Assembly: GCA_963764485.1 (NCBI GenBank)
Contig: CAVXSM010000002.1
Coordinates: 18,639 to 82,638, forward strand
Reading direction: 5' to 3'
DNA: 64,000 nt
DNA from: an uncultured Actinomycetota bacterium
GTDB taxonomy: Bacteria > Actinomycetota > Actinomycetes > Mycobacteriales > Jatrophihabitantaceae
Numbering within the stretch: position 1 is the stretch's first letter; the number at the start of each line of letters is the position of its first letter. The notes under the pieces were generated by a model. It saw nothing but the letters and a program-made list of their open reading frames with translations. It made no database searches and had not been told where the DNA came from. This document shows, in pieces, positions 38,789 through 56,667 of the stretch. The translations under genes and the position numbers were made by a program.

Positions 38789-38986
38789 CTAGTTCTGGCC
38801 GCTGACCGAGTCGATGATCCCGGACAGCGCGTCCTTCATCTGGGGTTCGAAGATGCCGAGGATCGCCACCACGAGGATCGCCGTCATCACGGTGACCATC
38901 ACCCAGCCGGGCACGTCACCACGATCGCCCCCGACCCGCCGGCGGGCGGCGGCAAGCCGCGCGGCCAAGAATCCGAAGAACGTCAT
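38789..38986 (-). CDS. Flp-like pilin (actinobacterial GDVPGW type)
   Basis: DRGDVPGWVMVTVMTA; AAGGAG RBS; position after tadC. Confidence 0.8.
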   Translation of the reverse strand: MTFFGFLAARLAAARRRVGGDRGDVPGWVMVTVMTAILVVAILGIFEPQMKDALSGIIDSVSGQN

Positions 38987-39002
38987 GGGCACTCCTTGTT
39001 CG

Positions 39003-39950: not shown

Positions 39951-40813
39951 CGCAGCACCCGCTGTTCCTCGGGCAACCGTCCGATGTGCAGCATGACGCG
40001 ATACGCGACGACGCAGACGGCCGCGCCGATGGCGAGCAGCAGGCTGCCGCCGGGCGAGTCGTAGGCCGACAACGTCTCGGACTGCGTGCCGAGCAACAGC
40101 AACACCGCCCACGGGGCGGCGACGGCGAGCCGGGCCGCGTTGACCACCCACCCCTGCCGGGTCTCGAGCTCAGCGCGGGTGCGGGCATCGGCGCGCAGCA
40201 GTTCCGACAACGTGCGCAGCACGGTGCCGAGATCGCTGCCGCCCACGTCGCGGGCCACCCGCACCGTCTCGCAGACCCGGTCGCCGACGGGATCACCGAC
40301 ATCGTCCTTCAGCCGGTCGAGGCACTCGCCGAACCGTCCGGTGACCCGATAGGCCGTGGCGAACCGGGCGAACGGCGGCCGCAGTTCGACCGGCCCACGC
40401 AGCGCGAGGGCCGCAAGACCCTCGGGCAACGACAGGCCGGCGCGCACGGCCGAGGCCAGGTTGTCGATCGCCTCGGGCCAGACCTCGCGCAGCGCAACCT
40501 GCCGCCGGTTGCGCAGCCGGCGGACCACCAGGGCCGGCAGAAAGCAGCCGAAACCGCCGAAGCAGATCGCCACGGTGACCGTCTGGGTAACGGCGATGAC
40601 GACGAGGAAGACGAGCGCGCCGCTCACCGCCTGGACGGCACCGAGTTGGACGACGCCGACGCCCTCGATGCCGGCCTGTCTCAGGGCGTCGTGCCGACGC
40701 GCGGCCCAGGTGCCCAGCAGTGACCGACCTCCGGACGGCACCGGAGCGCGCGACCCGCTGCGCCAGATCAGCATCAGGCCGAGACCGGCGACGAGTCCGA
40801 GCAGTGCCCCCAT
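39947..40813 (-). CDS. tadB: Tad pilus platform protein TadB (T2SS F family)
   Basis: WPEAIDNLASAVRAGLSLPE, GGSDLG. Confidence 0.88.
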   Translation of the reverse strand: MGALLGLVAGLGLMLIWRSGSRAPVPSGGRSLLGTWAARRHDALRQAGIEGVGVVQLGAVQAVSGALVFLVVIAVTQTVTVAICFGGFGCFLPALVVRRLRNRRQVALREVWPEAIDNLASAVRAGLSLPEGLAALALRGPVELRPPFARFATAYRVTGRFGECLDRLKDDVGDPVGDRVCETVRVARDVGGSDLGTVLRTLSELLRADARTRAELETRQGWVVNAARLAVAAPWAVLLLLGTQSETLSAYDSPGGSLLLAIGAAVCVVAYRVMLHIGRLPEEQRVLR

Positions 40814-40814
40814 G

Positions 40815-42068
40815 TCAGCGCCCGACACTTGAACGGTCGGCCGGGTGCCGGAGCAGGTCGGCCAGATCGAGACCGGCCGCCTCGAAGCGTTCGGCGTGCG
40901 GCGGGTAGCCGTCGCTGCGTTCGAGCCGACCGCGGCGCAGCGAGAACAACTCGGCAGCCTCGATCACGTCACCCTCGATCCGCCCGGTGACTCCGACGAT
41001 CTCGCGCACCCGGCGTGCGCCGGATGCGTCGAGCCCGAGGTGCACCACGAGGTCGACGCTCGCCGCCACGGTGGGCACCACGAAGGCGGCGGACACGTTC
41101 TCACCGGCGAGCAGCGGCAGCGTGCACATCTTGACCAGGGCCTCGCGGGCCGAGTTGGCGTGCAGGGTGCACATGCCGGGTAGTCCGCTGTTGAGGGCGA
41201 TCAACAGGTCGAGGCATTCCTCTTGCCGGACCTCGCCGACGATGAGGCGGGACGGACGCATCCGCAGGGCTTCCTTCACCAGCCGGCGCAGCGCGATCTC
41301 GCCGGTGCCCTCGAGGTTGGCCTGCCGGGTCTGCATGGCCACGACGTCGGGCCGGCGGACGGCGAGTTCGAACACTTCCTCGACGGTGACAACGCGCTCG
41401 CGAGCCGGGATGACACCGCACAAAGCGTTCAACATCGTGGTCTTGCCGGCCTGCGTGCCACCCGCGACCAGCACGTTGAGCCCGGCCACGACGGCCGCCT
41501 CTAGGAAACGGGCGGCGTGCTCGGTCAGCGTGGAGACTGCGACCAGTTCGTCGAGCGCGCGCAAGCCGACCGCGAACTTGCGGATGTTGACGGCCATGTG
41601 CTGACGGGTGATGTTGGGGATCACGACGTGCAGACGCGAGCCGTCCGGCAGCATCGCGTCGACGAAAGGCGTCGAGAGATCGATACGCCGCCCGGTTGGG
41701 CGCAGCATCCGTTCGACGAGTTCGGCGAGCTGGTCGGCGGTGAGGATCAGCGTGGTCAGCTCGGAGCGCCCGTGTCGGGCCACGAACACGCGGCCCGGCT
41801 CATTGATCCAGATCTCTTCGACCGTGGGATCGTCGAGCAGCGGCTGGAGCGGGCCGAAGCCGGCCACCGCGTCGAGGACGAGACGAGTCGCCCCGACGAC
41901 ATCGCCCAACGGCGGCAGCGTGGCCGTGATCGCGCGGTCGCGATAATCGCCGACAACCTCGTCGACCAGACGGGCGACGGTGTCGGGCTCGACGATCGGA
42001 TCGATCCCGCGCCGGCGCACCAGCTCGCGCACCTCGTCCTCGAGGATCGTCTGGGCCGAGGGCGCCAC
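40815..42068 (-). CDS. tadA: CpaF/TadA pilus assembly ATPase
   Basis: GGTQAGKTT, LRMRP, VGEVR, TLHANS. Confidence 0.93.
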   Translation of the reverse strand: MAPSAQTILEDEVRELVRRRGIDPIVEPDTVARLVDEVVGDYRDRAITATLPPLGDVVGATRLVLDAVAGFGPLQPLLDDPTVEEIWINEPGRVFVARHGRSELTTLILTADQLAELVERMLRPTGRRIDLSTPFVDAMLPDGSRLHVVIPNITRQHMAVNIRKFAVGLRALDELVAVSTLTEHAARFLEAAVVAGLNVLVAGGTQAGKTTMLNALCGVIPARERVVTVEEVFELAVRRPDVVAMQTRQANLEGTGEIALRRLVKEALRMRPSRLIVGEVRQEECLDLLIALNSGLPGMCTLHANSAREALVKMCTLPLLAGENVSAAFVVPTVAASVDLVVHLGLDASGARRVREIVGVTGRIEGDVIEAAELFSLRRGRLERSDGYPPHAERFEAAGLDLADLLRHPADRSSVGR

Positions 42069-42201: not shown

Positions 42202-42285
42202 GTTCTATGACGGATAGATTGACAGACATCAGACATGTCGGATAAACCTGCCGCCACACCGATTCACGACGAAAGGCAGGCAGGA

Positions 42286-43182
42286 ATGACGAACACCGAC
42301 GACGACCCGCGGCGAACCCGCGGGCGTCGACTCATCGGGGCCGCGCTGATCGCTCCGCTCACCGCGGCGGTCGTGTGGCCGGCCCCGGCCGGGGCCAAGC
42401 CCCCGAAGCCGGGCGCGCCCGGTCTGACGATCGGCCAGTATGACCACAAGACCGCCCCGCCCCTGGCGCCGGCGGACGAGCGCCGCGATCACGCCAAGCA
42501 GGTGGCGGCGACCGCCCACATGCAGGCCAAGCTCCGGGCGCAGGCGGCGCTACGGACCAACGGCATGCGCGCCGACGCGGCCACGCAAGACCTCGCGGCG
42601 ACCACCCGGTCGCTCGGCGTGAGTTACCAGATCCAGCAGGAGCCGAGCTGGTGCGGGCCGACAACACTGGCCGTCATCCTCGGCTACAAGGGCTGGGGCT
42701 GGACCGGCAGCCAGTACACCCAGCAGTCCGCCGCGGCCAGCCTGCTCGGGGTCAGCGCCGACGGCGGCGGTACGCCGTGGGTCGGCAGCGACAACGTGCC
42801 GACCGGTGGCCCATGGGTGTCGTCCTACCCGATGCAGGACGCGCTGAACTACCAGGACTACCGGCACACGCACAACACCTTCTGGGCGCCGAACGCCGTG
42901 CCCGACTCGCCGTCCAGCGCCGACATCAGCGAGTACCAGCGCGACCTGGTAGCCGACATCGATGTCGGCTACCCGTTCGCCAACAACGAGTACGCCGCGC
43001 CCAGCGCCCACCTGCAGAAGCAGCCCTACGAGACGATCATGCACTGGTTCGCGTCGAGCGGTTACGCCAGCTCGGGCGCCACGACCTACTTCGCCGACCC
43101 CGGCTGGGGCGGCGGTACCCGCAGCCAGGACACGACGCACCGTGTGGTTGTCGCCATCGGTGGCCGCGGGTTCATCTGGTGA
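42286..43182 (+). CDS. Secreted C39-like cysteine peptidase
   Basis: Arg-rich signal peptide; QxQ...WCGP, HW...SGY, YFADP. Confidence 0.75.
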   Translation: MTNTDDDPRRTRGRRLIGAALIAPLTAAVVWPAPAGAKPPKPGAPGLTIGQYDHKTAPPLAPADERRDHAKQVAATAHMQAKLRAQAALRTNGMRADAATQDLAATTRSLGVSYQIQQEPSWCGPTTLAVILGYKGWGWTGSQYTQQSAAASLLGVSADGGGTPWVGSDNVPTGGPWVSSYPMQDALNYQDYRHTHNTFWAPNAVPDSPSSADISEYQRDLVADIDVGYPFANNEYAAPSAHLQKQPYETIMHWFASSGYASSGATTYFADPGWGGGTRSQDTTHRVVVAIGGRGFIW

Positions 43183-44522
43183 GAGCCCTAGTCCGATCGG
43201 CGGCGCTCGTCGCTGCAGTGTTCGCGGTGCTGATCGGCGCCGCGGCCTGCACGCAGGGCGGCGGGCGCGGCCGGTCCCACCGGACGGGAGCGAGTTCGGC
43301 TCCCCCGGGAAGCGGTTCGGGGCCGGCGTCTGCGCCGGCCCCGGCCGTGGGGGACCTGGGCGTCGACGGCGCGAGCGTGCCGCTGCACGACCCCCCGTGC
43401 CAACAATCCCTGCCCGCGACCTGGAAGGCCGCGTTGCGGCAGGGTCTGCTGTGGCCCTCCGCAAAGGATCAGCTGCCCACCAACCAGCCGGTCCGCACCC
43501 CCCGCGGCGTCGGTGTGTTGGCCCAGCATGCGTCGCCCGCGGGCGTCGAGTTCACCATCCTCGGTCGCGACCGTGCGGTGTTGTCCACCGTCGGCACCAT
43601 CCCGCTCACCGACCCGGCCCAGCAGGGCGGCATCGCCTACTCGTGGGCCGACGACACCCACCTCGTCTTCATCTACAACGTGCAGGGCGAGCAGGCCCAG
43701 GACGTGTGGTGGCTGTACTCCTGGCCGCTGGCCGGCGGCCCGCTCACCCTGATCTCCCGCAACCCCACCGGCCCCGGCGGCCGCCCGATCAACGGCGGCT
43801 GGGTGCATCCGTTCGTCGACGGCGACACGCTCTATTGGATCCAGGCCACCCTGCCGCCGAAGGGCTTTCCCACCCTGCCGGCCGGCAGCGAACTGATGCA
43901 GTACCACTACTCGACCAAGCGGACGCGGGTGCTCTACCGCGGCCTCACCACGGCGTTCGTCGTCTACCACGGCCGGATTCTGTTCACTGGGCTGCCATTG
44001 ACGGCCGGCGGCAAGATCGACCGGATGACCGGCAATCCGCTACTGATCATGCACGCCGTCGACACCCGCACCGGCCGGGCGGTACCGGTACCAGCCGGCA
44101 TCAGCGCCGGCACCGACTTCGCCTACTGGATCGTCACCAATGGCGACCTGATCGCGTGGGACACCGACGACAACAGCCTGCGGGCCTGGCGGCCGGAATG
44201 GGGCAAGTCGATCACGCTCTTCCCCGGCCTGTCGCACAAGCGGCCGAAGTCCTTCGCCGATATCGAAGGCGGCAATCCTCGGCTATGGGGGCCCTACCTG
44301 ATCTGGTCCGATCACTACGCCTGGGTCCTCGACCTGCGCACCGATGCCTTCGTCCAGCTGAACGTGCACCCGTCGGCGAGCGAGGTACACGGCAGCCTGG
44401 TCAGCATCTGGCAACAACTCGACGACATCGTCCAGCGACCGGGCAAGCTGTATCCCGAGCAAGCAATGGTGCTCGATCTGGCCACGCTGCCGGGCCTGCC
44501 GGCCTGTCCGGGCACCCGGTAA
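43179..44522 (+). CDS. Lipoprotein, probable beta-propeller
   Basis: GTGA coupling to the peptidase; lipobox AAAC; repeated Trp-containing beta units (DGDTLYW, NGDLIAW, WGPYLIW). Confidence 0.7.
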   Translation: MRALVRSAALVAAVFAVLIGAAACTQGGGRGRSHRTGASSAPPGSGSGPASAPAPAVGDLGVDGASVPLHDPPCQQSLPATWKAALRQGLLWPSAKDQLPTNQPVRTPRGVGVLAQHASPAGVEFTILGRDRAVLSTVGTIPLTDPAQQGGIAYSWADDTHLVFIYNVQGEQAQDVWWLYSWPLAGGPLTLISRNPTGPGGRPINGGWVHPFVDGDTLYWIQATLPPKGFPTLPAGSELMQYHYSTKRTRVLYRGLTTAFVVYHGRILFTGLPLTAGGKIDRMTGNPLLIMHAVDTRTGRAVPVPAGISAGTDFAYWIVTNGDLIAWDTDDNSLRAWRPEWGKSITLFPGLSHKRPKSFADIEGGNPRLWGPYLIWSDHYAWVLDLRTDAFVQLNVHPSASEVHGSLVSIWQQLDDIVQRPGKLYPEQAMVLDLATLPGLPACPGTR

Positions 44523-44798: not shown

Positions 44799-45809
44799 AT
44801 GATGACGATCCAGCTGCGGACAATCCGCGCAAAAACGACGACGACCCGCGGCCTCACCCGGCTGATCGGCGTCGCCGCCCTCACCGCGTTGTCGATGTGG
44901 GCGGCGCCGGCCGCGCAGGCCACCGGGTCCCTGTCGACCACCACGACCCTCACCGCCTCGCCGGCCGCGTCGACGGCCGGCACACCGGTGACGCTGAGCG
45001 CCAACGTCAAGGTGCTGGAGCTACCCGGCCTCGGCATCCTGCCCACCGGCCCGGTCAGCTTCACCGCGACGAACGGCACCAAGACCGCCGCACTCGGCAC
45101 CGCCACGTTCGGTCCGTGTTTCCTTACCACCTGCACGGCGACGCTCACCACCACCGCGATCCCGGTCGGCACGACCTCGGTCAAGGCGAGCTACGCCGGC
45201 GACGGCCTCACCGCGCCGAGCTCGGCTTCGACCGCGGTGAGTGTCGCGCCCAACTCCAACCCGGGTAGCACCGCGGTGGTGACCTGCTACGCCGGCCAGC
45301 CCTGCGATTCCGGCAACGTCAAATCACCCGACAACACGACGACGCTCGACGTGAACTCCAGCGCCTCGGCCAACAACCAGACCGTCACCGCGTCGGCCGG
45401 CCCCGGTTCGCTGCACTGCGCGCCCGCCGGCGGTAGCCCGGACAACGACGGCGACGACGACGACGGCGTCTGGGTCGGCGCGCTGGCTACGTTCAGCAGC
45501 ACCGCTGCCGACTCGACCAAGACGGTCACCTACACCGGATCCGGCAGCGTCGGCGCGGTGATGAAGCACCAGTTCAGCGAGCACACCAAGTACGCCGGGT
45601 GCTACGGATCGCCCACACCGTTCAAGGGCTACACCACCGGCGTGTACGGCAACGCGCCGTTCAACGCCACGGACGGCCTGTACGAAGCCCAGCCCTCCAG
45701 CTGCTCCTACAACGGCGGGCAGAAGCCGTGCGTGACGACGGCCTCGACGTCCACGACGTTCAGCTACATCGTGCACACCCTGGCCGGTGATCCGAAGTTC
45801 GTCGGCTGA
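44799..45809 (+). CDS. Secreted Ig-like (Big_3) protein with Cys-rich C-terminal domain, paralog A
   Basis: Signal peptide ending AQA; TTTTL..SP....G.PVTL...PTG.VSF...A.YAGD; ends AGDPKFVG. Confidence 0.8.
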   Translation: MMTIQLRTIRAKTTTTRGLTRLIGVAALTALSMWAAPAAQATGSLSTTTTLTASPAASTAGTPVTLSANVKVLELPGLGILPTGPVSFTATNGTKTAALGTATFGPCFLTTCTATLTTTAIPVGTTSVKASYAGDGLTAPSSASTAVSVAPNSNPGSTAVVTCYAGQPCDSGNVKSPDNTTTLDVNSSASANNQTVTASAGPGSLHCAPAGGSPDNDGDDDDGVWVGALATFSSTAADSTKTVTYTGSGSVGAVMKHQFSEHTKYAGCYGSPTPFKGYTTGVYGNAPFNATDGLYEAQPSSCSYNGGQKPCVTTASTSTTFSYIVHTLAGDPKFVG

Positions 45810-45871
45810 CACCGGCCCGAGGCGGGGTCGCAAACAATGCGGCCGCAACGTTGGCGACCTAGCCTCGGCAC

Positions 45872-48800
45872 ATGTCCGCATTCGGCGACAGCGATCCGCT
45901 CGCGCCGTATGTGCCGCGCCTCGTGGCCGACTGGTTGGCCGACGAGTACGAGGTCACCCATCGCGGCGTGTCGGGCACTTTCGTCTTCGCCGACGTCTCC
46001 GGTTTTACCAAGCTGACCGAGCGGCTGGCCGCCCGTGGCAAGGCCGGCGCCGAGGAGATGGGCGGCCTGCTCAACGTCCTCTTCGAGGACCTGCTGACCG
46101 CCGCCTACGACTACGGCGCCAGCCTGCTGAAATGGGGCGGCGACGCGGTCCTGCTGCTCTTCGACGGCGACGAGCACCCGTTGCGGGGTACGCGGGGCGC
46201 ATGGGGAATGCAGCAGATCATGCGCCGGATTGGACGGGTGCAGACCTCGCGCGGAGCCGTCCGCCTCGGCATCTCGATCGGCGTGCACACCGGCGATGTC
46301 GACTTCCTGCTCGTCGGCCGGACGCACCGCGAGCTGATCGTCACCGGCCCGGACGCCACGACGACGGCCCGGATGGAAAAGGTCGCCGGCCGCGGCCAGG
46401 TGGTCGTCAGCCCATCCACCGCGGCCCTGCTGCCGGCCGGTTGCGTCGGTGCGGCGGTCGGGCCGGGCCTCCTGCTGACCCGCGCCCCGCAGGTCGTCAG
46501 CATCCCCAACCGCATGCCGAAACGCAGCGACGTCGACCTCGGCCAGGCAATGTGCGCGCACCTCCGCGATCACCTGCGCGGCGATGTCGAGGACGAGCAC
46601 CGCAGTACGACGATCGGGTTCATCCGCTTCGCGGGCGCCGACGACCTGCTCGCGAAGCACGGGCCGGAGGCGCTGAGTGACGCCGTCGCCGACATCGTCA
46701 TCCGGACCCAGGAGGCGGCCGACGCCAACGGCGTCACCTTCCTCGCGAGCGACCTGAATGAGAACGGCGGCAAGCTGATCCTTACCTCCGGCGTACCGAT
46801 CGCCACCGGGGACGCCGAGACCAGGATGCTGTCGACGCTGCACCGCGTGGTCCGCTCGGACGGCCCGCTCGCGCTCACCGGTGGCATCACGTCCGGCGGC
46901 GTGTTCGCGGGCGACTACGGACCGTTCTATCGCAAGACCTATTCGATCGCCGGCGACGCGGTGAACCTCGCCGCGCGGTTGATGGCGGCCGCCGAGCCCG
47001 GCCAGATCCTGGCCACGCCGACCGTCGTCGAGCGCTCGCGCAGCACGTTCGAGACGACGCCGCTGCCGCCCTTCTTCGTCAAGGGCAAGGCCGCGCCGGT
47101 CGAGGCAGTCCTCATCGGCGGGCCGCGACGCGCGAACGAACGGGCCGCAACGGACCGGCCGCCGCTGGTCGGCCGCGACGCCGAACTGGCGCACCTCCTC
47201 GCCGCGGCCGAACGAGCGGGCCGGGGCCGGGGCGGGGTGGTCGAGATCGTCGCCGATCCCGGCCTCGGTAAGTCCCGCCTCATCGAGGAGCTGGCCGACC
47301 GGGTCAGCGCACCGGTGATGTGGGTGGACGGCGACATCTACGGACGCGTGACTCCGTACCAACCGATGCAACGACTGCTGCGCAACAGCCTCGCCCTGCC
47401 GGCCGACGTCGACGACCTGACCCTCGCGGCGACGCTGACCGATCTCGTCGCCGCCGCGGCGCCGGACCTCGCCCCCTGGCTGCCGCTCGTCGGGATCGTG
47501 GCCGGCGTCGACCTTCCGGCGACCCCCGAGACCGCCATCCTCGACCCTGAGGTGCGCCGGGCCCGTTTGGAGGCCGCGATCAGCGAACTGCTGGGCCGGC
47601 TACTCACGACCCCGATCGTGCTCGTGTTCAACGACGTGCAGTTCATGGACGAGGCGACGACCGCGTTGATCGGCCGGCTCGCCGCCGATGTCGGGCCGCG
47701 ACCGTGGCTGATCATCGTCAGTCGCCGTCCGGACTGCCCCTCACCGGTGACCGCCGAGCACGTGTCGATAGCGCTCGCGCCGCTCGACGCCGACGCCGCC
47801 GCTCGGTTGTTCAGCGACGCGACCGACGAGGCGCCCCTGCCGTCGCACCAGATGCGCCGGCTGGTCGAGCGCGCGGACGGGAACCCGCTGTTCCTGCGCC
47901 AGCTGATCGCCGCGGCCCGATCGGGGGCCGATATCGATCATCTGCCCGACTCGATCGAGGGCACGATCGTCGCCCAGATCGACCAGCTTCCCCCCAGGCG
48001 CCGGCGCTGGCTGCGCGCCGTGTCCGTCCTGGGCATGACCGTCGAACCCGACCTGCTCGCCGCCGTGCTCGAAGGCACCGAACTGGCCGACGAGAGCTGC
48101 GCCGGCCTCGAAACGTTCATCTCGATGCGGGTTGATGGCCGGTTGCAGTTCGCCCATCACCTCGTTCGACTGACCGCGTACGAAAGCCTGCCCTACCGGC
48201 GCCGCATCGAGCTGCACGCTCGCGCGGCCGATGCGCTCGAAGTCGATCTCGGCGAGCGAGCGGAACACGCAGCCGAGCTGCTGTCGCTGCACTGCCTGCG
48301 CGGCGAGAAGTTTGCCTCGGCCTGGCACTACTCGCGGGTCGCCGGCGATGTGGCCCGTGAGGCCTTCGCGCCGGCGCAGGCCGTGGAGTGCTACCGCCGG
48401 GCCCTCGACGCGGCCCAGCATCTGCCCGACCTGTCCGAGCCTGAGCTCGCCGGCGTCTATGAAGTGCTCGCCCAATGCACCATGGATCTCGGCGAGACCG
48501 AGCAGGCCGAATGGGCGCTGCGTAGGGCTCGAGCCCGCGCCAAGGACGATCCGTACCAGCTGGCCCGGCTCATGCTGCACACGGCGCGACACCGCCAGCA
48601 CATCGGCCGGCACGCCGATGGCCTGCGCTGGGTGACGCGGGGCCGCCGACTCCTGCACGGAGCGGAGACGCCGGCCGCGGCCCGTAAACGCGCCGAGCTG
48701 GCCGAGGTCGGCGCCCTCATCCGGTACGACCAGGGCGCCTACCGCACGGCCGCGATCTGGGCCCGCCGCTGTGTCGCCGAAGCGCGCGCCGCCGCCGATC

Positions 48801-49645
48801 CGCTGACCGAGGCCCGCGGGCTCGGCGTCTCGGCCGTGCTGGCGGCGCTGACCGGACAGCGCGTCGACGATCGCGAGGTTCGCGAGGCGCTCGCCCGCTA
48901 CGACGAATCGCGTGACCTGCGCGGCAAGGCGCGTACCGCGAACGTGCTCGGCATGTGCGCGTATTTCGACGGCCGGTGGAACGAGGCCATGGACTACTAC
49001 GCGCTGGCCGAAGACGCCTTCACCCAGATCGGCTTCGACATCGGCACGGCTACGACGGCGGCTAACCGGGCCGAGATCCTGGTCCAGCAAGGCCGGGTCG
49101 ACGAGGCCGCGCCGGCGCTCGACGCCGCGATCCGCACCCTGCTGGCCGTCAATGCGACCAGTTTCGTCAGCTTCGCGTTGGTTCTGCGCGGCCGAGTCGC
49201 GCTCGGGCGGCGCGACTTCGACGCCGCCATGAACGACTTCGGCGAGGCACGCACCTTCGCGGTCGAGATGGGCGAGACCGACGAGGTGTTGACGATCGAC
49301 GCGCTGGCCGCGGAGTGCCTGCTCCGCTCCGGTGACCCGGCGGCCGCGATGAGCTTCGTCGACGACGCGCTCGTGCGGGCCGGACGGGCCGAGACCGAGG
49401 CGTCGGCCACGCCCCTGCTGTATCGGGTTCGGGGCGAGGCGCTCGTGATGCTCGGCCAGATCGACGACGGCCACACGCAACTGCGTCGCGCGCTGGCCGA
49501 GGCCAGGCGGCGCGACGCCCAGCATGACGTGGAGGCCACCTTGGCGACGCTCGCGCGGCTGGCGGCCGGCGACGCGACCGAGGTCCGGGGCTGGGCCGAC
49601 GAGCGGGCTCGACTGGCCGACCGGCTCGGCATAGTCCGCCCTTGA
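45872..49645 (+). CDS. Double class III nucleotide cyclase - STAND NTPase - TPR protein
   Basis: FADVSGFT and KWGGDA (domain 1); GDAVNLAARLM and VKGK (domain 2); LVGR..E, PGLGKS, LVFNDVQ, GNPLF; TPR-like tail. Confidence 0.9.
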   Translation: MSAFGDSDPLAPYVPRLVADWLADEYEVTHRGVSGTFVFADVSGFTKLTERLAARGKAGAEEMGGLLNVLFEDLLTAAYDYGASLLKWGGDAVLLLFDGDEHPLRGTRGAWGMQQIMRRIGRVQTSRGAVRLGISIGVHTGDVDFLLVGRTHRELIVTGPDATTTARMEKVAGRGQVVVSPSTAALLPAGCVGAAVGPGLLLTRAPQVVSIPNRMPKRSDVDLGQAMCAHLRDHLRGDVEDEHRSTTIGFIRFAGADDLLAKHGPEALSDAVADIVIRTQEAADANGVTFLASDLNENGGKLILTSGVPIATGDAETRMLSTLHRVVRSDGPLALTGGITSGGVFAGDYGPFYRKTYSIAGDAVNLAARLMAAAEPGQILATPTVVERSRSTFETTPLPPFFVKGKAAPVEAVLIGGPRRANERAATDRPPLVGRDAELAHLLAAAERAGRGRGGVVEIVADPGLGKSRLIEELADRVSAPVMWVDGDIYGRVTPYQPMQRLLRNSLALPADVDDLTLAATLTDLVAAAAPDLAPWLPLVGIVAGVDLPATPETAILDPEVRRARLEAAISELLGRLLTTPIVLVFNDVQFMDEATTALIGRLAADVGPRPWLIIVSRRPDCPSPVTAEHVSIALAPLDADAAARLFSDATDEAPLPSHQMRRLVERADGNPLFLRQLIAAARSGADIDHLPDSIEGTIVAQIDQLPPRRRRWLRAVSVLGMTVEPDLLAAVLEGTELADESCAGLETFISMRVDGRLQFAHHLVRLTAYESLPYRRRIELHARAADALEVDLGERAEHAAELLSLHCLRGEKFASAWHYSRVAGDVAREAFAPAQAVECYRRALDAAQHLPDLSEPELAGVYEVLAQCTMDLGETEQAEWALRRARARAKDDPYQLARLMLHTARHRQHIGRHADGLRWVTRGRRLLHGAETPAAARKRAELAEVGALIRYDQGAYRTAAIWARRCVAEARAAADPLTEARGLGVSAVLAALTGQRVDDREVREALARYDESRDLRGKARTANVLGMCAYFDGRWNEAMDYYALAEDAFTQIGFDIGTATTAANRAEILVQQGRVDEAAPALDAAIRTLLAVNATSFVSFALVLRGRVALGRRDFDAAMNDFGEARTFAVEMGETDEVLTIDALAAECLLRSGDPAAAMSFVDDALVRAGRAETEASATPLLYRVRGEALVMLGQIDDGHTQLRRALAEARRRDAQHDVEATLATLARLAAGDATEVRGWADERARLADRLGIVRP

Positions 49646-49651
49646 GCGCGG

Positions 49652-49684
49652 CTGTGGCGCCCGCGCGGTGCGCGGGCGCCACAG
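49652..49684. terminator. Hairpin between convergent genes
   Basis: CTGTGGCGCCCGCGC-ggt-GCGCGGGCGCCACAG, 15-bp perfect stem. Confidence 0.75.
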
Positions 49685-49700
49685 ACCACTCGCGATTTGG

Positions 49701-50765
49701 CTAGCCGACGAACTTCGGGTCGCCGGCCTGGGTGTAGATGACCAGCGTGTAGTAGCGCTGATCGGTCGGCGATGACGGCAGACCCGAACCGTCGATCGAA
49801 CCCGAACCGATGCACGGCGGCGGCAGCTGACTGGGGTTTCCGCTGATCAAGCTGTTCCCGCCGTTGACGCACTGGCGCAGCTGGGCCTCGTAGTAGGTGT
49901 TGCCATACGCATCGGTCACCTGTTGGGCCGGTCCGTAGAGCCCGTTCGTGTAGCCCTGGAACGGGTTGGGGGATGCGAAGCAACCTTCGTACGTGCTGTG
50001 GCTGGCGTAGTTGTTGTGCATGATGACCGCGTCGGGACCGCGCACCGTGTAGGTGATCGTCTTGTACGCGTCACTGGCCGAGTTGGTGAAGGTCGCCAGC
50101 GCGCCACCAGAGACCGCGTCGGTGTCGCCCGGGCAGTTGAGCAACTGCCCGCTCGTCAGAGATCCGGACACCGACTGCGAGCCGCTCGACGCCGACGCCG
50201 TCACCTGCAGCTTGGTCTCGCCGTCGGACGACGTGACCGTGGTGGTGGAACACGGGTTGTTCGCGGTGCAGTTCTGCGTGGTGCTCGCCCCCGGATCCGG
50301 CGGCGGCGGGGGCGGGAAGGCGACGGTCACCGCTGCGGCACCCTGGCTCGCCGCGGAGACGAAATCGCCGGCATACGCCGCGCGGACCGAGGACGTACCG
50401 GCCGGCATGGCGCTGGTCGTCAGTCGCGCGGTGCACGTCGTCAGCAAGCACGTTCCGAGGCTCGCCGAACCGAGCGCGGTGGTCGTGCTGCCCTTCACGG
50501 CGGTGAAGCTCACCGGCCCGGTGGGCGTCACGAGCAGGCCGGGCAGCACGCCCAGGATCGAGACCGTTGCCGTGAGCGTGACCGGAGTTCCCACGATCGA
50601 CGACGAGGGCGACGCCGACACCGTGGTCGTCGTCGGTAGCAACCCCCCTGCGGCCGCGGACCCCGCCATCGCGGTGGCGCCCCCCGCGAGCGCGATCGCC
50701 GAGACTGCGACGACGGCGAAGCGGCCTACACCGAGTCGCTCTCGCAATTGACTGTGCCCTGCCAT
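49701..50765 (-). CDS. Secreted Ig-like (Big_3) protein with Cys-rich C-terminal domain, paralog B
   Basis: Collinear with 44799..45809, same cysteine pattern, ends AGDPKFVG. Confidence 0.8.
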   Translation of the reverse strand: MAGHSQLRERLGVGRFAVVAVSAIALAGGATAMAGSAAAGGLLPTTTTVSASPSSSIVGTPVTLTATVSILGVLPGLLVTPTGPVSFTAVKGSTTTALGSASLGTCLLTTCTARLTTSAMPAGTSSVRAAYAGDFVSAASQGAAAVTVAFPPPPPPDPGASTTQNCTANNPCSTTTVTSSDGETKLQVTASASSGSQSVSGSLTSGQLLNCPGDTDAVSGGALATFTNSASDAYKTITYTVRGPDAVIMHNNYASHSTYEGCFASPNPFQGYTNGLYGPAQQVTDAYGNTYYEAQLRQCVNGGNSLISGNPSQLPPPCIGSGSIDGSGLPSSPTDQRYYTLVIYTQAGDPKFVG

Positions 50766-50913
50766 GGATCCCCCTGTGCGTGTCGGTCGACGGTGTCGAC
50801 CCCCCGTACCGCGCCGTTGCACGATGGCCGCGACTCTAGGTACACGCTGTTGCACCTAGGTTGCTCGAATTCCGTTGCCGGACATGTCCGGTCATTACCG
50901 GCAACACGCAGAG

Positions 50914-51405
50914 TCAGACGAACCGTGACGAGTTGGACGACTGTGCGAGCACGACCGGATGTTCGACGTCGCGCAGCCGGTTCGACAGGCTCGTCGCGAT
51001 CCACATCGCGGTGCGCGGGTCGCTCAGCAGGGTCGCGAATTCGCCCGGATCCATGACCAGAATCGTCATCGGGGTCAGCGCGACCACGGTCGCCGAGCGG
51101 GGATGCGCGTCAAGCAGTGCCATTTCCCCGACCATGTCGCCGGCCGACGCGTAGGCGATCACCTCGCCGCCCACCCGGATCTCGGCCGTCCCGGACACGA
51201 CGATGAAGGCCTCCCGCCCGGGTTGCCCCTCGGACATGACGACCGCGCCCGGCGCCAGATCCCGATCGCAGAGCAGCGCATCGACCGCCTCGAGGTCGGC
51301 ATCGCCGTAGTGCGCGAAGATCGACAACGAGCGCAGGAGGTCGAGCCGCTCCTCCGACACCCTGGTCGAGCGGGGCCGCCGATGCCACAAGAGATGTCTC
51401 GTCAC
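50914..51405 (-). CDS. Stand-alone cyclic nucleotide-binding domain protein
   Basis: EG..G...FIVVSG...GDMVGEMALLDAHPRSATV; no HTH follows. Confidence 0.88.
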   Translation of the reverse strand: MTRHLLWHRRPRSTRVSEERLDLLRSLSIFAHYGDADLEAVDALLCDRDLAPGAVVMSEGQPGREAFIVVSGTAEIRVGGEVIAYASAGDMVGEMALLDAHPRSATVVALTPMTILVMDPGEFATLLSDPRTAMWIATSLSNRLRDVEHPVVLAQSSNSSRFV

Positions 51406-51525
51406 GTCACCGACTGTGCCTCCCGCTCGTTAACTGGCCGCAGCGACTTGATAGCGCGGGGCTCTGGGGCGGGCCGGCTGTGGTGGTCCGCGGCCGGGGG
51501 ATGTCGAGTGCCGAGGGGGCCGCGG

Positions 51526-51918
51526 ATGGACGCGACCACCGTCCTCGTGGTCGAAGACAACGACAAAAGCCTCAAGCTGGTCTGCACGCTGCTCGAATTG
51601 CGGGGATATGTACCGCTTGAGGCGCGTTCGGCGCAAGAAGGCATCCGCCAGGCCAACAAACACCAGCCCGCGCTGATCCTGATGGACGTCCAGCTCCCCG
51701 ACCTCTCCGGCACCGAGGCGCTGGCCCGGCTGCGGGCCAACCCGCGAACCCGATCGATCCCGGTCGTGGCGGTGACGGCGCTGGCCATGAAGGGCGACCG
51801 TGAGCAGCTGCTCGCGCTGGGCTTCGACGATTACTACTCCAAGCCGATCGATGTGCGCACATTCGTCGATTCGTTGCTACCGCTGCTCGACCGCGGAAAC
51901 GGATATGTCCGTCCATAA
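51526..51918 (+). CDS. Single-domain response regulator (DivK/CheY-like)
   Basis: LVVEDN, ILMDVQLP, VVAVTALAMKGD, SKPID. Confidence 0.92.
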   Translation: MDATTVLVVEDNDKSLKLVCTLLELRGYVPLEARSAQEGIRQANKHQPALILMDVQLPDLSGTEALARLRANPRTRSIPVVAVTALAMKGDREQLLALGFDDYYSKPIDVRTFVDSLLPLLDRGNGYVRP

Positions 51919-54712
51919 GCCGCGAACGCACCGCCCACGCCCGCTATCGCTGCGCAATCAATGGCGGCCACGATTGCCCTCCCTACGGCTCACCATCGAC
52001 GGGAGCGGCGGCATGCGGTCCGGACCGGTCGGCGCCGCGAAGGGGCGCGCACCCGACCGTCAGGAGGCCCGCGGCGACGAGCTGTCGCGCATGGCCGGCT
52101 CGGCGTCGCCGTCCGAGTTCACCAGTGGTCTGGGGGGCCGGGCCGCGCTGGCTCTGGGCCTGTTGCTGCCGAGCATCCTGCTGCTCGAGCCCGGCGAGGC
52201 GCGGTCGACGGTGTTCATCACCGGCTGCGGGATCTTCGCGATCTCGGCCGGCGCGGTGCTGCTCCGCTTCCCCCGGGCACTGCCGATGTGGCTGCTCGAC
52301 GGGTTGCTCATCGTCGCCGACGCGTTGCTCGCGGCGCTGGGCATCTTCGAGGACTCACTGCAGCCGGCGCTGCCGGGCACCTTCGTCCTCATCGGGACGA
52401 TCCTGTTCGCGGTGCGGGCGTGGTGGATCGCCTGCGTGCACGTCGGGCTGCTCGGCACGAGCTACGCCCTGGTCCTGGGCTTCGCCGATACCGGTCCGGG
52501 TCCGGTGCTGCGCTGGGTCACCGTCATGGCCGCAATCACCTGCGCCGGCCTGTTCCTCCGCTGGCTGGTCGATCAGGTGCTCGCACTCGCGCGGGACGAG
52601 AGCGCATTCCGCTCCGCCGCCGAGGCCGCCACCGACGAGTTGCAGCGAGTCAGCGAAATGCGCAGCGCCTTCCTGGCCCGGATGAGCCACGAGTTGCGCA
52701 CGCCGCTGAACGTCGTGCTCGGCTTCAGCGACCTGCTGGCCGAGCAGGTCGTCGGCCCGCTCAACGACAAGCAACTCGAGTACACCCGCGACATCAGCTC
52801 GTCGGCGCGGCATCAGGTCGAACTGGTCGACGAGGTGCTCGACCTGGCCAAGGTGGAATCGGGCCGCAGCTTCCTGCGGACGGACGAGGTCGATCTCCGG
52901 TCGATCCTCGGCGAGGCCGTGCGGATGGTCCGCGACAGCGCCGAGCGCAAGGGCCTGCAGCTCGTGCTGTCGGTGGAACCTGGGCTCGGCCTCGTCCTCG
53001 CCGACCGGCTAAAGATCCGCCAGGTCGTGGTGAACCTGCTGGCCAACGCGGTGAAGTTCACCCCGGCCGCCGGGCACATCCGGATCAACGCCCGGCCCAC
53101 CGGCGACCGGGTCGAGGTCACCGTGACCGATTCCGGCGTCGGCATGTCCTCGAGCGAGCTGGCGGGAGCCTTCGACGAATTCACCACCGCAGCGCGCATG
53201 GAGGAAGGCACCGGGCTGGGGCTGCCGCTCGCCCGCCGGCTGATCGAACTGCACGGCGGCTCGCTCACGGCCACCAGTACCCCGAACGGGGGCAGCGTCT
53301 TCCGCTTCGATCTGCCGCTGCGCAGCCCGGCGGCGATGGCCGCCGAGGCCGAGATGTTGGGCGAGGCGATCGGCACCGACCCGCTCACCCACGCTGATCA
53401 CTCGGCGTTCACCCAGCCGGGCTCGGTCGCCAACCGGGCCCTGATCGCCGTCATCGCCGGGCGGTTCCTGATCGCCGGCGCGGTGCTGTTCACGGTGCTG
53501 TCGATCGTCACGACCGGACCGCCGAGCACCCGGCTCACCCTCTTCGGGGCCGCCGTGATGCACGGTCTGCTCTCGGTGCTGGTGCGGCGCCGCATTCGCA
53601 CGGCCCCGAGCTGGCAGATCGAGACCCTGGCGTGGGTCGGCATCGCGACCGTCACCGCAATGGCCTACTTCGCCGACTCCTACATTTCGATCACCGCGCT
53701 CGCGTACGGCTGCGTCACCACGACCGGGTTCGCGCTGTGGCCCCGCAGACGGGCGATCATGCATCTGATCGGGATCGCCGGGGCGTACGCCGGCGTCCTG
53801 GTGATCACCTCGGTGCCCGAGGCGGCCACACAGTGGCTGGCCGTCCTCATCCTGCTGGCGTTCCAGGGCGAGATCGTGAGCTGGATCGCCGAACGGCTGC
53901 GCCGCCTCGTCGTCGAGGAGCAGTCGGCCCACCGCACCGCGGCCCGGGTGCGGGCCGAGCTGGAGGCCACCAGCCGGCACAAGAGCGTCTTTCTCGCCAA
54001 CATGTCGCACGAGCTGCGGACGCCGCTGAACGCGATCATCGGGTTCGCCGACCTGCTCGACTCCCAGCTCGGCGGACCGCTGAACCAGACGCAGCGCGAG
54101 TTCGTGCAGGACATCCAGCTTTCGGCCCGGCACCTGCTCTCGCTCATCAACCTGGTGCTGGACGTGGCCAAGCTCGACGCTGGTCGGATGACCCTTGACC
54201 TCGACGTCGTCTCGGTGCGGGGGCTGGTCGAGCGCGCGGTCAGCACCGCCCAGCAGACCGATCCGGAAACGACGCCGCCGATCGCGTTCACGATCAACCC
54301 CGGCGCGGACTTCGTCGTCGGCGATCATCACCTGCTCGAGAAGGCCCTGGCCCAGCTCATCTCGAACGCGCTGCGCTTCACCCCCGACGCCGGCCGGATC
54401 AGCGTCGTCGCCTCGCCGGCCGATCAGGACATCCTCGAGATCGCCGTCAACGACTCCGGCGTCGGCATCGCGGCCAGCCAGCACGCCGCGATCTTCGAAC
54501 CGTTCCACCACGGCAAGCCGCTGCACGTCGAGAACACGCCGCACGGCACCGGACTCGGGCTGGCGTTGGTGCGGGGGCTAGCCGAATTGCACGGTGGGCA
54601 CGTCTGGCTGACCAGCACCCCGCTGAAGGGGAGCACCTTCACGCTCGTCCTGCCGCGCCGGGTCTCGAGCCCCGAGGCTCTCGAATCGGCGATTCGCGTG
54701 CGCGCAGTATGA
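51905..54712 (+). CDS. Membrane histidine kinase with two complete TM-HisKA-HATPase modules (start uncertain: 51905, 52013 or 52091)
   Basis: SHELRTPLN occurs twice; NLLANAVKF/QLISNALRF, DSGVG and GTGLGL each occur twice. Confidence 0.88.
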   Translation: MSVHKPRTHRPRPLSLRNQWRPRLPSLRLTIDGSGGMRSGPVGAAKGRAPDRQEARGDELSRMAGSASPSEFTSGLGGRAALALGLLLPSILLLEPGEARSTVFITGCGIFAISAGAVLLRFPRALPMWLLDGLLIVADALLAALGIFEDSLQPALPGTFVLIGTILFAVRAWWIACVHVGLLGTSYALVLGFADTGPGPVLRWVTVMAAITCAGLFLRWLVDQVLALARDESAFRSAAEAATDELQRVSEMRSAFLARMSHELRTPLNVVLGFSDLLAEQVVGPLNDKQLEYTRDISSSARHQVELVDEVLDLAKVESGRSFLRTDEVDLRSILGEAVRMVRDSAERKGLQLVLSVEPGLGLVLADRLKIRQVVVNLLANAVKFTPAAGHIRINARPTGDRVEVTVTDSGVGMSSSELAGAFDEFTTAARMEEGTGLGLPLARRLIELHGGSLTATSTPNGGSVFRFDLPLRSPAAMAAEAEMLGEAIGTDPLTHADHSAFTQPGSVANRALIAVIAGRFLIAGAVLFTVLSIVTTGPPSTRLTLFGAAVMHGLLSVLVRRRIRTAPSWQIETLAWVGIATVTAMAYFADSYISITALAYGCVTTTGFALWPRRRAIMHLIGIAGAYAGVLVITSVPEAATQWLAVLILLAFQGEIVSWIAERLRRLVVEEQSAHRTAARVRAELEATSRHKSVFLANMSHELRTPLNAIIGFADLLDSQLGGPLNQTQREFVQDIQLSARHLLSLINLVLDVAKLDAGRMTLDLDVVSVRGLVERAVSTAQQTDPETTPPIAFTINPGADFVVGDHHLLEKALAQLISNALRFTPDAGRISVVASPADQDILEIAVNDSGVGIAASQHAAIFEPFHHGKPLHVENTPHGTGLGLALVRGLAELHGGHVWLTSTPLKGSTFTLVLPRRVSSPEALESAIRVRAV

Positions 54713-56667
54713 ACGGCGAGGTGCTGATCGTCGACGACACCCCGGCGAACATCCGGCTGCTGGAGGCCATCCTCACAACGCATGGCCACCAGGTGCGCAG
54801 CGCCGGCTCGGGCGAGGCCGCCCTGGCCCTGATCGCCAGCGAGAACCCGCCCGATCTCGTCCTGCTCGACGTTCAGATGCCGGGATTGGACGGCTACGAG
54901 GTGTGCCGCCGCATTCGGGCCGATCCCGCCACCGCGCAGATCCCGGTCGTGATGATCACGGCGTCCGGATCCGAGGACAAGGCGACCGCGCTCGAGTGCG
55001 GAGCCGACGACTTCATCCCGCGGCCGTTCGACCAGGCCGAGCTGCTGGCCCGGGTGCGGTCGTCGCTGCGGGTCAAGCAGTACCAGGACACGGTCGTCGC
55101 GCAGGCCGCCGAGCTCGGCGCGTGGAACCGCGTGCTCGAGGAACAGGTCAACGAGCAGGTCGAGGAACTGCACCGGCTGCAGCGGCTGCGCCGGTTCCTG
55201 TCCGATCACGTCGCCGACGCCGTCCTCAGTTCGGGCAACGAAGCCCTGCTGCAGCCGCACCGGCGCGAGATCTCGCTGATGTTCTGCGACCTGCGCGGGT
55301 TCACGCACTTCGCGGCGGCGTCCGAGCCGGAAGAAGTGCTCACCGCGCTGCAGGAGTTCCACGCACTGGTCGGCGCTACGGTCGCCCGGCACGCGGCGAC
55401 GGTCGGCTACTTCGCCGGTGACGGCGTGATGATGTTCTTCAACGATCCGATCGCGTGCGACAACCCGGCCCTGCGCGCGATCAGCGCCGCGATCGAACTG
55501 CGGGACGCGATGGCCCCGCTGGCCGAGCGCTGGCACGAGCGCGGCCACGCGCTGAGCATCGGTATCGGGGTGGCCTACGGCTTCGCGACGATCGGGCTGA
55601 TCGGCTTCGAGGGCCGCTACGAGTACACCGCCATCGGCTCGGTCGCCAACATCGCGAGCCGGCTGTGCGACTGCGCGGGGCCGGGCGAGATCCTGATCAC
55701 GCAGCGGGCGCACTTGGCGGCCGGTGACCGGGTGGTGGCGAGCAGTCGCGGCGAGCTGACCCTCAGCGGGGTCGACGCGCCGGTCGGGGTGTGGGAGGTC
55801 AGCTCGGCCACCGAGTTGCTGCAACCGTTGCGCGAGCGGGCGCCGGCCCGAGTCGAGAACGCCGTCGTCATGCCGGCCCCGGGCCCCAATCACGCCGCGG
55901 GGGCGAGCGGCGTCGAGATCCGGGTGCTCGGCCCGACCGAATTGCTGGTCGACGGTGCCGACGTGCCGCTGCGCTCGTTCAAGGTGCGGCAGCTGCTGTG
56001 TCTGCTGGCGGCGCAGCGCGACCAGGTGCTGTCCGTCGATCGGCTCACCGATCAGCTCTGGGACGGCGAGCCGCCGGACTCGGCGACGCCCACGTTGCGG
56101 GTGTACATCTCGCGGCTGCGCAAGTTGCTGTCCGGCGTCGGCCGGCAGTCGGTTCTCGTCACCCGGCCGACCGGCTACCAACTCGCGGTGGGCGACGGCG
56201 AGCTGGACTCGGTCCGCTTCGACCAGCTGGTCGCCCGCGGCCGGGCGGCCCTGCAGCAGGGCGACCCGGAGACGGCGGCCGCGCTGCTGCGCGAGAGCCT
56301 CGACCTGTGGCGGGGCACGCCGTACTCCGACATCACGAACTCACCGGCCGTGGTCACCGAGTGCGCGCGGTTGGGGCAGGAGCGGCTGTCGGTGCAGGAG
56401 GATTTCCTCGACGCCGAGCTCGCCTGCGGCCGGCACCGAATGGCCATCGGGCTGCTCGAGGCGCTCGTCGCCGAGAACCCGCTGCGCGAGCGGTTGTGGG
56501 CACAGCGCATGATCGCGCTCTACCGATCCGGACGTCAGCCGGAGGCGCTCGCCTCGTTCCAGGACCTGCGCCGCCACCTGAGCGACGAGCTCGGCCTCGA
56601 TCCGTCGCCTGAGCTCGCCGATCTGCACGGCGCGATCCTCAACCGCTCCAGCAGTCTCGATCTCTAG
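54709..56667 (+). CDS. REC - class III cyclase - SARP (wHTH + BTAD) fusion regulator
   Basis: LIVDD/LLDVQMP; FCDLRGFT, FAGDG, NIASRL; IRVLGP...YISRLRK, LWRG, PLRERLW...ALYRSGRQ.EAL...ELGLDP. Confidence 0.9.
   Translation: MNGEVLIVDDTPANIRLLEAILTTHGHQVRSAGSGEAALALIASENPPDLVLLDVQMPGLDGYEVCRRIRADPATAQIPVVMITASGSEDKATALECGADDFIPRPFDQAELLARVRSSLRVKQYQDTVVAQAAELGAWNRVLEEQVNEQVEELHRLQRLRRFLSDHVADAVLSSGNEALLQPHRREISLMFCDLRGFTHFAAASEPEEVLTALQEFHALVGATVARHAATVGYFAGDGVMMFFNDPIACDNPALRAISAAIELRDAMAPLAERWHERGHALSIGIGVAYGFATIGLIGFEGRYEYTAIGSVANIASRLCDCAGPGEILITQRAHLAAGDRVVASSRGELTLSGVDAPVGVWEVSSATELLQPLRERAPARVENAVVMPAPGPNHAAGASGVEIRVLGPTELLVDGADVPLRSFKVRQLLCLLAAQRDQVLSVDRLTDQLWDGEPPDSATPTLRVYISRLRKLLSGVGRQSVLVTRPTGYQLAVGDGELDSVRFDQLVARGRAALQQGDPETAAALLRESLDLWRGTPYSDITNSPAVVTECARLGQERLSVQEDFLDAELACGRHRMAIGLLEALVAENPLRERLWAQRMIALYRSGRQPEALASFQDLRRHLSDELGLDPSPELADLHGAILNRSSSLDL

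Follow-up and report, generated by a model that had tools for sequence, protein, structure and literature searches.

Several described systems contain parts of what is found in the DNA analysed here, a stretch of 64,000 nucleotides (nt) from an uncultured Actinomycetota bacterium of the Jatrophihabitantaceae (contig CAVXSM010000002.1, positions 18,639 to 82,638; hereafter, the window). Seven contiguous genes of this window encode two secreted Ig-like paralogs (partners A and B), a STAND cyclase, a stand-alone protein binding cyclic nucleotide monophosphates (cNMPs; the reader), a single-domain receiver, a double histidine kinase, and a fusion of receiver (REC), cyclase, winged helix-turn-helix (wHTH) and BTAD domains of the SARP type. 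In RRNPP systems (Rap-Phr, PlcR-PapR, NprR-NprX, AimR-AimP), adjacent genes encode a Sec-secreted precursor of 10-100 amino acids (aa) and a cytoplasmic TPR receptor of 250-500 aa, and the signal consists of the last 4-10 residues of the secreted product (PMC10075063, in its accessible part). The FxSxx-COOH/RxD systems (Kaur et al., 2020; accessible part of PMC7159879), themselves a prediction, couple a small, variable precursor with a conserved short C-terminal peptide to an AP-ATPase-TPR (STAND-TPR) protein, together with a zincin peptidase, often a radical SAM enzyme and sometimes a nearby CRP-like gene. Tandem C1-C2 cyclase domains followed by a P-loop STAND region, as in the STAND cyclase of the window, are shared with the SWACOS STAND NTPases and with full-length soluble adenylyl cyclase (sAC, ADCY10), for which the available part of PMC12802110 describes a predicted STAND/P-loop region and tested nucleotides that gave no regulation.

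The locus differs from each of these systems. Unlike RRNPP precursors, the secreted partners are folded proteins of 300-800 aa (336 and 354 aa in the window), the putative receptor is a cyclase of 1257 aa, the hosts are Actinomycetota instead of Bacillota, and any processing would be autocatalytic. With respect to the FxSxx-COOH systems, the effector is a cyclase, the precursor would be a secreted Ig-ZU5-like protein, and neither a zincin peptidase nor a radical SAM enzyme was noticed in the window cluster. In comparison with sAC, neither the Lys of C2 that selects the base nor the Arg of the bicarbonate switch seems to be conserved, and we know of no comparable secreted partner of sAC. The STAND protein has a known architecture, and its obligate partner, the partner's C-terminal domain and the tail of that domain are undescribed as far as the open-access literature reaches. 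No description of either of the two modules delineated below was found in that literature, in line with the original prediction, which had recognised no named system in this combination; these loci could be listed in the neighbourhood data that accompany PMC7159879 and PMC8195603. The accessible part of the latter mentions SWACOS and ZU5, not the STAND/partner pairing.

A STAND cyclase paired with a secreted protein

The window is the junction of two separately conserved modules. A STAND alignment run against GTDB gave 24 loci (41-65% identity), whose titles include Jatrophihabitans, Microthrixaceae, Mycobacteriales, Frankiaceae, Nocardioides, Marmoricola, Spongisporangium and Solirubrobacteraceae, among others. 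A secreted partner is the immediate neighbour of the STAND gene in 23 of these 24 loci, all from Actinomycetota (22 recognised by profile and one, L042, by eye and by alignment with the family), and in the remaining one (L023) the contig stops within the STAND gene. Hence, the placing of the secreted proteins with the STAND cyclase in the original prediction is well founded. The single seven-gene system that it had also proposed is not: no double kinase or fusion gene was present in any of the 24 STAND loci (flanks up to 10 kb), and no STAND or partner gene in any of 12 other fusion loci (stretches of 6-20 kb). As a unit, the seven-gene cluster is unsupported, and a tighter two-gene pair lies inside it.

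The 23 pairs comprise 12 convergent, 8 divergent and 3 tandem arrangements; since three orientations are kept, the link between STAND and partner is not co-transcription. The family of the window genome (142 genomes) contains the secreted protein in 6 members, and in the 5 relatives of the window genome it is invariably convergent with a STAND of 57-64% identity. More distant STANDs (36-42% identity) number 20 in this family, and each of the 10 that were fetched has a convergent gene of secreted type. These 10 distant partners end in D-x-[RK] plus 3-4 residues, and 3 of the genes are frameshifted; the domain profile of the family (see next section) misses all 10, leaving their homology to the DP-tail domain unproven, and their STANDs nest among the clades of DP-tailed partners. 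The converse also holds: among 400 genomes of the phylum, the partner domain occurs in 4, each time in a gene directly adjoining one for a cyclase-STAND-TPR protein, in 3 cases of the single-cyclase type.

The partner domain is more frequent in a second family of 36 genomes (the G150 family), where it was matched in 22. Twenty of these genes were new to the STAND search. Fifteen of them carry a DP tail, and 14 of these have a double-cyclase STAND as their neighbour or with a single paralog in between; the fifteenth is at a contig edge. The other five, which lack DP and end in SH[LF]AG or VRIGG, have no STAND in the stretch fetched (5/5), and four of them occupy the chromosomal site where relatives carry a STAND/partner pair. 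The genomes of this family are kin, and the counts are not independent events. Related MAGs (metagenome-assembled genomes) also contribute many of the other loci, as would be expected if the pairing were inherited synteny without functional coupling. Adjacency is kept, however, at 37-64% identity, in several classes, at many genomic sites, in three orientations and in two cyclase-STAND architectures, which makes mere synteny highly improbable.

The best PDB match of the STAND cyclase is human sAC (E 1.4e-27, profile). All 43 aligned relatives share D41, K87, D91, D294, K301, N365, R369, the Walker A motif GK[ST] and D593 of Walker B, including the metal-binding Asp pair on C1 (D41/D91) and the transition-state residues on C2 (N365/R369). 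Because catalytic and NTPase residues are invariant in these relatives, the protein is very likely, judging by its residues, enzymatically active and has a functional switch. Position 292, in the register of the adenine-selecting Lys, is E, A or S, in a stretch that HMMER gaps against sAC and where the alignment is ambiguous. Regarding bicarbonate-related sites, the alignment shows S or T at position 358 in 41/43 and K87 in all, and no conservation at the position of the Arg switch; in sAC numbering, we take the base-selecting Lys to be K334 and the bicarbonate-switch Arg to be R176. Within the TPR region, Asn1065 (43/43) and Asn1024 (37/43) are conserved, and Asn residues of this kind hold peptide backbones in TPR grooves. 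PDB matches of this region include the peptide-binding proteins LGN/Pins and kinesin light chain. For the regulatory half of sAC, the accessible part of PMC12802110 identifies no ligand and no nucleotide regulator, and the bacterial family now offers a near-obligate genetic partner.

Other observations concern the wider set of STAND loci. Genes for cNMP-binding proteins (MFS-cNMP, cNMP-patatin, Crp and lone readers) are frequent near STANDs. A metagenome scan with the partner alignment gave no match, and one with the STAND alignment gave 3 loci, none of which was counted (L045 is an apparent repeat of L033, and contig ends truncate two). In L079, L080 and L082, DP-tail partners are also paired with a zinc-ribbon single-cyclase STAND-TPR protein, and L082 has two partners, ending in DPKGRV and DPKGRI. 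Upstream of the partner genes of L025, L029, L030, L032, L033, L034 and L021, a C[GC]C[CG]TTT[AT]-like word recurs by eye about 40-70 nt ahead of the start codon; it is absent from the two partner genes of the window. Elsewhere in the window genome (L020; G000:C1:1120000-1137400), a gene for a small acidic repeat protein (DDVEGH...RPRA units) stands amid two single-cyclase STANDs, in the company of GAF-like, subtilisin-like and MFS-cNMP genes, cNMP readers and Crp (identities by eye). The same acidic-repeat gene set (L085:4021-4203) flanks a double-cyclase STAND in L085, possibly a second peptide-linked cNMP module.

The partner's C-terminal domain and its tail

The original prediction had recognised an Ig-like secreted paralog pair in the window, and a Big_3_5 domain was indeed matched in both proteins (E 2.8e-12 and 2.5e-10), which are 44% identical across 321 columns (E 2e-66), both terminate in AGDPKFVG and are the only partner copies in the window genome. 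A second domain of about 185 aa had gone unremarked. Partners are built from a likely signal peptide (called by eye from the partner alignment and a low-confidence model N-terminus, without a signal-peptide predictor), Ig or fn3 domains in varying number, and this C-terminal domain, which has five invariant Cys in the family alignment. Of 27 domain members, at most one was matched by any given Pfam or NCBIfam family, and no match was significant. A profile of the domain retrieved 471 clusters at 50% identity, thus defining a family without a name, and the domain is C-terminal in all 150 matches listed. Among these 150, DP occurs within the last 22 residues in 131, and in 117 of those it stands 5-8 residues before the terminus; it is usually followed by R, K or H (His in 26/131). 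By comparison, DP near the end was found in 42 of 2330 likely coding open reading frames (ORFs) of the window genome (1.8%).

The domain modelled alone reached a predicted local distance difference test score (pLDDT) of 91. Fold alignment (VIA-align, 48,161 chains) gave ankyrin ZU5 as best match (Z 7.0, rmsd 3.7, 119 residues aligned); the top five rows are ankyrin ZU5 (7.0, 6.8 and 6.6), BAI3 GAIN (6.9) and CD97 GAIN (6.8), with rmsd 3.3-4.0 and 118-128 residues aligned, followed by GH98 domains (6.5-6.0), UNC5b (6.1), CELSR1, GPR110, GPR126 and the FIIND of NLRP1/CARD8 (5.3), all of these scores being under the tool's caution line of Z 8, where a match may reflect a common arrangement only. 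No single score proves the ZU5/GAIN-like fold that the model predicts; its weight comes from the many independent members of the superfamily that head the list. Foldseek with the C-terminal domain found nothing significant, fold searches with the whole partner gave Ig matches only, a PDB sequence search with the domain profile gave nothing under E 0.1, and the ESM Atlas gave no usable match. ZU5 and GPS domains were grouped by Zhang et al. and found in bacterial surface proteins (PMC3482391, in its accessible part), and the partner may be a bacterial GAIN/ZU5 relative with Asp-Pro chemistry.

The structural alignments to GPR110, GPR126, latrophilin-3, GPR97 and NLRP1 all end at G179 of the model, immediately ahead of the D-P. 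The ends of the GPR126, latrophilin-3 and GPR97 chains are presumably their cleavage sites. Those of NLRP1 (1212) and GPR110 (566) are the residues preceding the scissile bond, NLRP1 being self-cleaved between F1212 and S1213 (PMC7370280) and the GPR110 stalk beginning at T567 (PMC9046087), as the accessible parts of both papers describe. The model therefore predicts that Asp-Pro lies no more than one residue away from the kink at which such folds self-cleave, and that the last strand, K-F-V, follows it. The likeness to ZU5/GAIN/FIIND proteins (adhesion GPCRs, NLRP1, CARD8, UNC5 and ankyrin) thus comprises the best fold matches and a motif at the turn before the last strand. Unlike in those proteins, the last strand of the partner is terminal, and a released piece would be a free peptide of 4-7 residues, not a tethered agonist. 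The H-x-S/T autoproteolysis motif is absent at the turn, which carries G-D-P-[RKH] instead. Self-cleavage at Asp-Pro is described for GDPH sites, also in a turn between strands (accessible part of PMC10880436); these VWD sites share with the partners the D-P in a strand turn and differ in that His is rare here and in that the partner fold is not VWD.

Tails are diverse (124 kinds among 177) and are nevertheless shared within loci. Five loci have two partners, and the tails are identical in 3 of the 4 DP/DP pairs despite 39-50% domain identity (PKFVG in the window, PRFT in L027 and PRITN in L037), compared with identical tails in 1-4% of other pairs at 30-60% domain identity; one member of the fifth pair, in L032, lacks DP. 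Inside the tail, the codons of the two genes differ synonymously in the window (A versus B) and in the L037 pair.

A secreted disulfide protein and a cytoplasmic enzyme normally cannot touch, yet their genes adjoin, and the simplest bridge between them would be a released and imported peptide. Starting from the observed pairing, the intact motifs of the enzyme, the tail motif, its loss where no STAND is present and the tails shared within loci, the leading reading, tentatively held, is that the C-terminal tail of the partner self-cleaves at Asp-Pro, which would free PKFVG outside the cell; that the peptide would be re-imported into the cytoplasm and bind the TPRs of the STAND cyclase in RRNPP style; and that the bound peptide would gate cyclic-nucleotide synthesis. 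Cleavage, release, import, TPR binding, the sign of the regulation and the identity of the cNMP are steps that we infer. The more specific form, a bacterial signalling system of eukaryote-like components in which a GAIN/ZU5-like secreted protein clips off its last strand at Asp-Pro and the resulting 4-7-residue peptide acts through the TPRs as the switch of an NLR-like, sAC-like cyclase, is rather doubtful; a bound ligand, acid, or a pull on the Ig stalk would possibly trigger the clipping. For import, the window genome encodes three near-full-length peptide-ABC binding proteins of family 5 (SBP_bac_5).

Several points weigh against this peptide-signal reading, besides the middling Z scores of the fold matches and the GH98 domains interleaved among them. 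The tail is a well-ordered final strand of the sandwich in the model (pLDDT about 90) and may be structural, staying bound if cut, like the first strand of FCGBP; two entries for uncleaved CD97 give registers one residue apart. Among the 150 matches listed, 12 have D-G and 7 neither D-G nor DP, only the Asp being near-universal, and some tails are 15-22 residues long. Partners of one STAND subclade have D-M or D-F tails, for which we know of no precedent of self-cleavage; neither hhalign nor a 141-sequence hidden Markov model revealed homology between these partners and the DP domain. The within-locus comparison comprises only 4 pairs: the tails of the L064 pair differ, and those of L027 are identical in DNA, so that gene conversion is possible. 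No peptide transporter gene was noticed by eye beside the pair in the locus gene lists. Finally, the residue at position 292 suggests that the STAND product may not be cAMP.

The ordered tail is also what would be expected if the partner were an output instead of a signal, namely an adhesin of the cell surface or matrix, encoded beside the cyclase that controls or accompanies it; its Asp turn would be structural or act as a clip-and-link site anchoring the protein covalently outside the cell. Variable Ig/fn3 stacks, with total lengths of up to 795 aa, are adhesin-like, Asp-Pro clip-and-link chemistry is known in RTX proteins (accessible part of PMC7078468), and bacterial surface proteins contain ZU5 domains, as cited above. 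Such a role leaves unexplained the absence of STAND beside the DP-less paralogs (5/5), the matching of tails within loci and the adjacency in three orientations, and no shared upstream repeat was found; on balance, it is somewhat unlikely. A guard mechanism would dispense with cleavage and import altogether: failed export or oxidative folding, under envelope stress or phage attack, would expose the D-x-R/K tail of the precursor to the TPRs, and cNMP would rise. It fits the one-to-one pairing, the matching of tails and the D-M/D-F tails, and the five invariant Cys suggest that the domain probably folds only after export. Pro after Asp would be needless for a guard, yet DP is present in 131 of the 150 matches listed, and the loci lie amid housekeeping genes, with no defence context. 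Accordingly, we consider a guard improbable.

If the peptide-signal reading is true, RRNPP-style communication reaches Actinomycetota with a second-messenger output, the more than 100 tail variants would represent private channels, and the released tail would be the free-peptide counterpart of the tethered agonist of adhesion GPCRs. To our knowledge, no peptide ligand has been reported earlier for a STAND cyclase of sAC type; PKFVG is a five-residue, synthesisable candidate. Should it fail, two undescribed units of soil actinomycetes would still be left, namely the obligate pair and the relay with a REC-pseudocyclase-SARP protein treated below.

Two groups of divergent endings were also recorded. 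The DP-less family genes (L061, L063, L066, L068 and L032:7475-8383) end in SH[LF]AG, SHLVG or VRIGG; four of these loci are without the STAND, three of them being situated where relatives have the pair. A second partner type, in L083-L086, L088, L091 and L092, ends in D-[MF]-R-G-S-T or DFRLSI/DFRASL, and has its own Cys pattern, no Pfam match and a weak ZU5 lead (0.82, ESM Atlas).

The double kinase, the REC-cyclase-SARP fusion and their relation to the pair

Reader, receiver, double kinase and fusion form the second conserved unit, with 12 loci other than that of the window. The double kinase is directly upstream of the fusion in 12/12, a divergent cNMP reader is present in 9/12 (two of the others are cut by contig ends and one has no reader), and the lone receiver in 7/12. 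Full-length fusions occur in 6 of the 142 genomes of the window family, and 4 further matches are REC-cyclases only; in each of the 5 relatives with a fusion, the double kinase immediately precedes it. The divergent, overlapping operon described in the original prediction was confirmed in the sequence: the kinase ATG (51905) precedes the receiver stop (51918), and the kinase stop overlaps the fusion ATG at 54709.

Residues were counted in the best 120 homologs of the fusion. The phospho-acceptor Asp of the receiver is kept in 111/120 (8 gaps), the receiver Lys is replaced by Arg or Gln in 114/120, the base-selecting Lys of the cyclase is found in 0/120, and all four catalytic residues of the cyclase are retained in 75/120, at least one being gone in 45/120. 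Five Mycobacteriales fusions have a dead-looking cyclase. These counts make the two independent cNMP sources of the original prediction doubtful; judging from the four residues it keeps, the window fusion may be active, catalysis not being needed by the family. The front end of the fusion is 50-57% identical to unfused REC-adenylate cyclases, which were found behind a kinase and a receiver in 10 of 400 phylum genomes; 10/10 of the unfused proteins keep the receiver Lys and 10/10 lack the cyclase Lys, and the absence of the latter is thus family-wide. Its output part, an OmpR-type wHTH plus BTAD, is that of SARP activators (AfsR family). Unlike in known SARP and REC-cyclase systems, both parts are fused here, the receiver Lys is exchanged, catalytic residues are frequently lost, and a tandem double kinase stands ahead. 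The module is likely a membrane double-kinase relay ending in a phosphorylation-gated SARP activator, in which the main task of the cyclase domain is likely to be dimerisation or the sensing of nucleotide. At L054 (G148:C2:204719-207076), an unfused REC-cyclase gene lies divergently beside a SARP-STAND gene, resembling the two halves of the fusion.

A check of gene co-occurrence was mixed for the seven-gene proposal: the two blocks share genomes above background, and the seven-gene arrangement was found nowhere but in the window. The full fusion was found in 9/24 genomes with a STAND pair versus 0/400 phylum genomes, only 3 candidates per genome being scored in the latter. Within the G150 family, the 7 genomes with a fusion are those with the 7 strongest partner matches (6 of the 7 had been reached through the STAND search), and the two protein trees are largely congruent over 10 genomes. 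These data, together with the four catalytic residues kept by the window fusion, would fit one seven-gene circuit in which two active cNMP sources and a reader lead to a SARP driving the secreted genes. Kinship by shared descent, however, can explain both the co-occurrence and the congruent trees, and elsewhere the modules are unlinked, as seen in the two sets of loci. They are on different contigs in G064, G075 and G024, and the megabase contigs of G024 place them at least about 180 kb apart. Module 1 occurs without a full-length fusion match in G011 (93% complete), G124 and G148, and the fusion module occurs without module 1 in G068 (81% complete) and G045 (63% complete). The dead-looking cyclases of the five Mycobacteriales fusions do not fit two active sources. 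Nor do upstream sequences suggest that the SARP drives the secreted genes, a possibility that had been raised: 11 partner genes of genomes with the fusion showed no enrichment of SARP-type heptamer direct repeats in their upstream regions relative to shuffles or 9 controls. A single circuit is thus hard to credit. Module 2, which is no constant component of module 1, may respond to the same cNMP pool, and it is plausible that the lone reader senses a pool common to both.

A defence-system label was considered and rejected, as the PADLOC matches are to generic domains only. The likeness to Pycsar is confined to a class III cyclase with a cNMP-binding domain nearby; unlike in Pycsar, the reader has no fused TIR or transmembrane effector, the architectures differ and no defence-island context was seen. 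A reading as uridylyl or cytidylyl cyclases (PMC11224242) was likewise weighed and not adopted. Separately, in L068/L053 (G153:C13), a DP-less gene of the partner family lies on the same contig as module 2, about 31 kb from it.

Coordinates and neighbouring genes

All seven ORFs are intact in the window, with the coordinates and strands of the original prediction, and domain search bore out the assigned contents: two Guanylate_cyc stretches, AAA_16 and TPR in the STAND cyclase, two HisKA and two HATPase_c domains in the kinase, and Response_reg, Guanylate_cyc, Trans_reg_C and BTAD in the fusion. The GC content of the seven-gene region is 0.68-0.72 (genome, 0.70). A look-up of sequencing runs covering the stretch listed none, which has no bearing on expression.

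Table 1. Features of the two modules in the window (positions in nt of the window).
Feature	Position	Strand	Characteristics
Secreted partner A, 336 aa	44799..45809	+	Likely signal peptide, Big_3_5 Ig domain, six-Cys C-terminal domain, tail GDPKFVG
C-terminal domain of partner A			No family name; modelled as ZU5/GAIN-like (structure model and fold alignment)
Tail of partner A, G330-D331-P332-K-F-V-G	45786..45806	+	D-P at the turn preceding the last modelled strand
sAC-like STAND cyclase, 1257 aa	45872..49645	+	C1 and C2 cyclase domains, P-loop NTPase, TPRs; no evident transmembrane segment
Secreted partner B, 354 aa	49701..50765	-	Convergent with the STAND gene; tail AGDPKFVG at 49704-49727
Stand-alone cNMP-binding protein	50914..51405	-	Phosphate-binding motif GEMALLDAHPRSATV looks intact; member of module 2; start codon may be 51360
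Single-domain receiver	51526..51918	+	Optional in module 2 (7/12 other loci)
Tandem double histidine kinase	51905..54712	+	Two membrane-sensor, HisKA and HATPase units; both H-boxes MSHELRTPLN intact
REC-cyclase-wHTH-BTAD (SARP) fusion	54709..56667	+	Arg105 in place of receiver Lys; D194/D238/N314/R318 kept; Tyr234 at the base-selecting site

Immediately preceding partner A, positions 42235-44522 hold a gene for a secreted-looking C39-like peptidase (PF13529) and an overlapping lipoprotein-like gene without a Pfam match; both are single-copy in the genome and absent from the related loci L001-L047. Further upstream (37511-42068) lies a Tad/Flp pilus-like run, recognised by eye from the translations, with a CpaF-type ATPase, TadB/C-like proteins and small pilin-like genes. 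At the start of the window (1-8200), the GC content is lower (0.62-0.67) and excisionase-like and integrase-like ORFs adjoin an HU-like gene, suggesting a possible integrated element.

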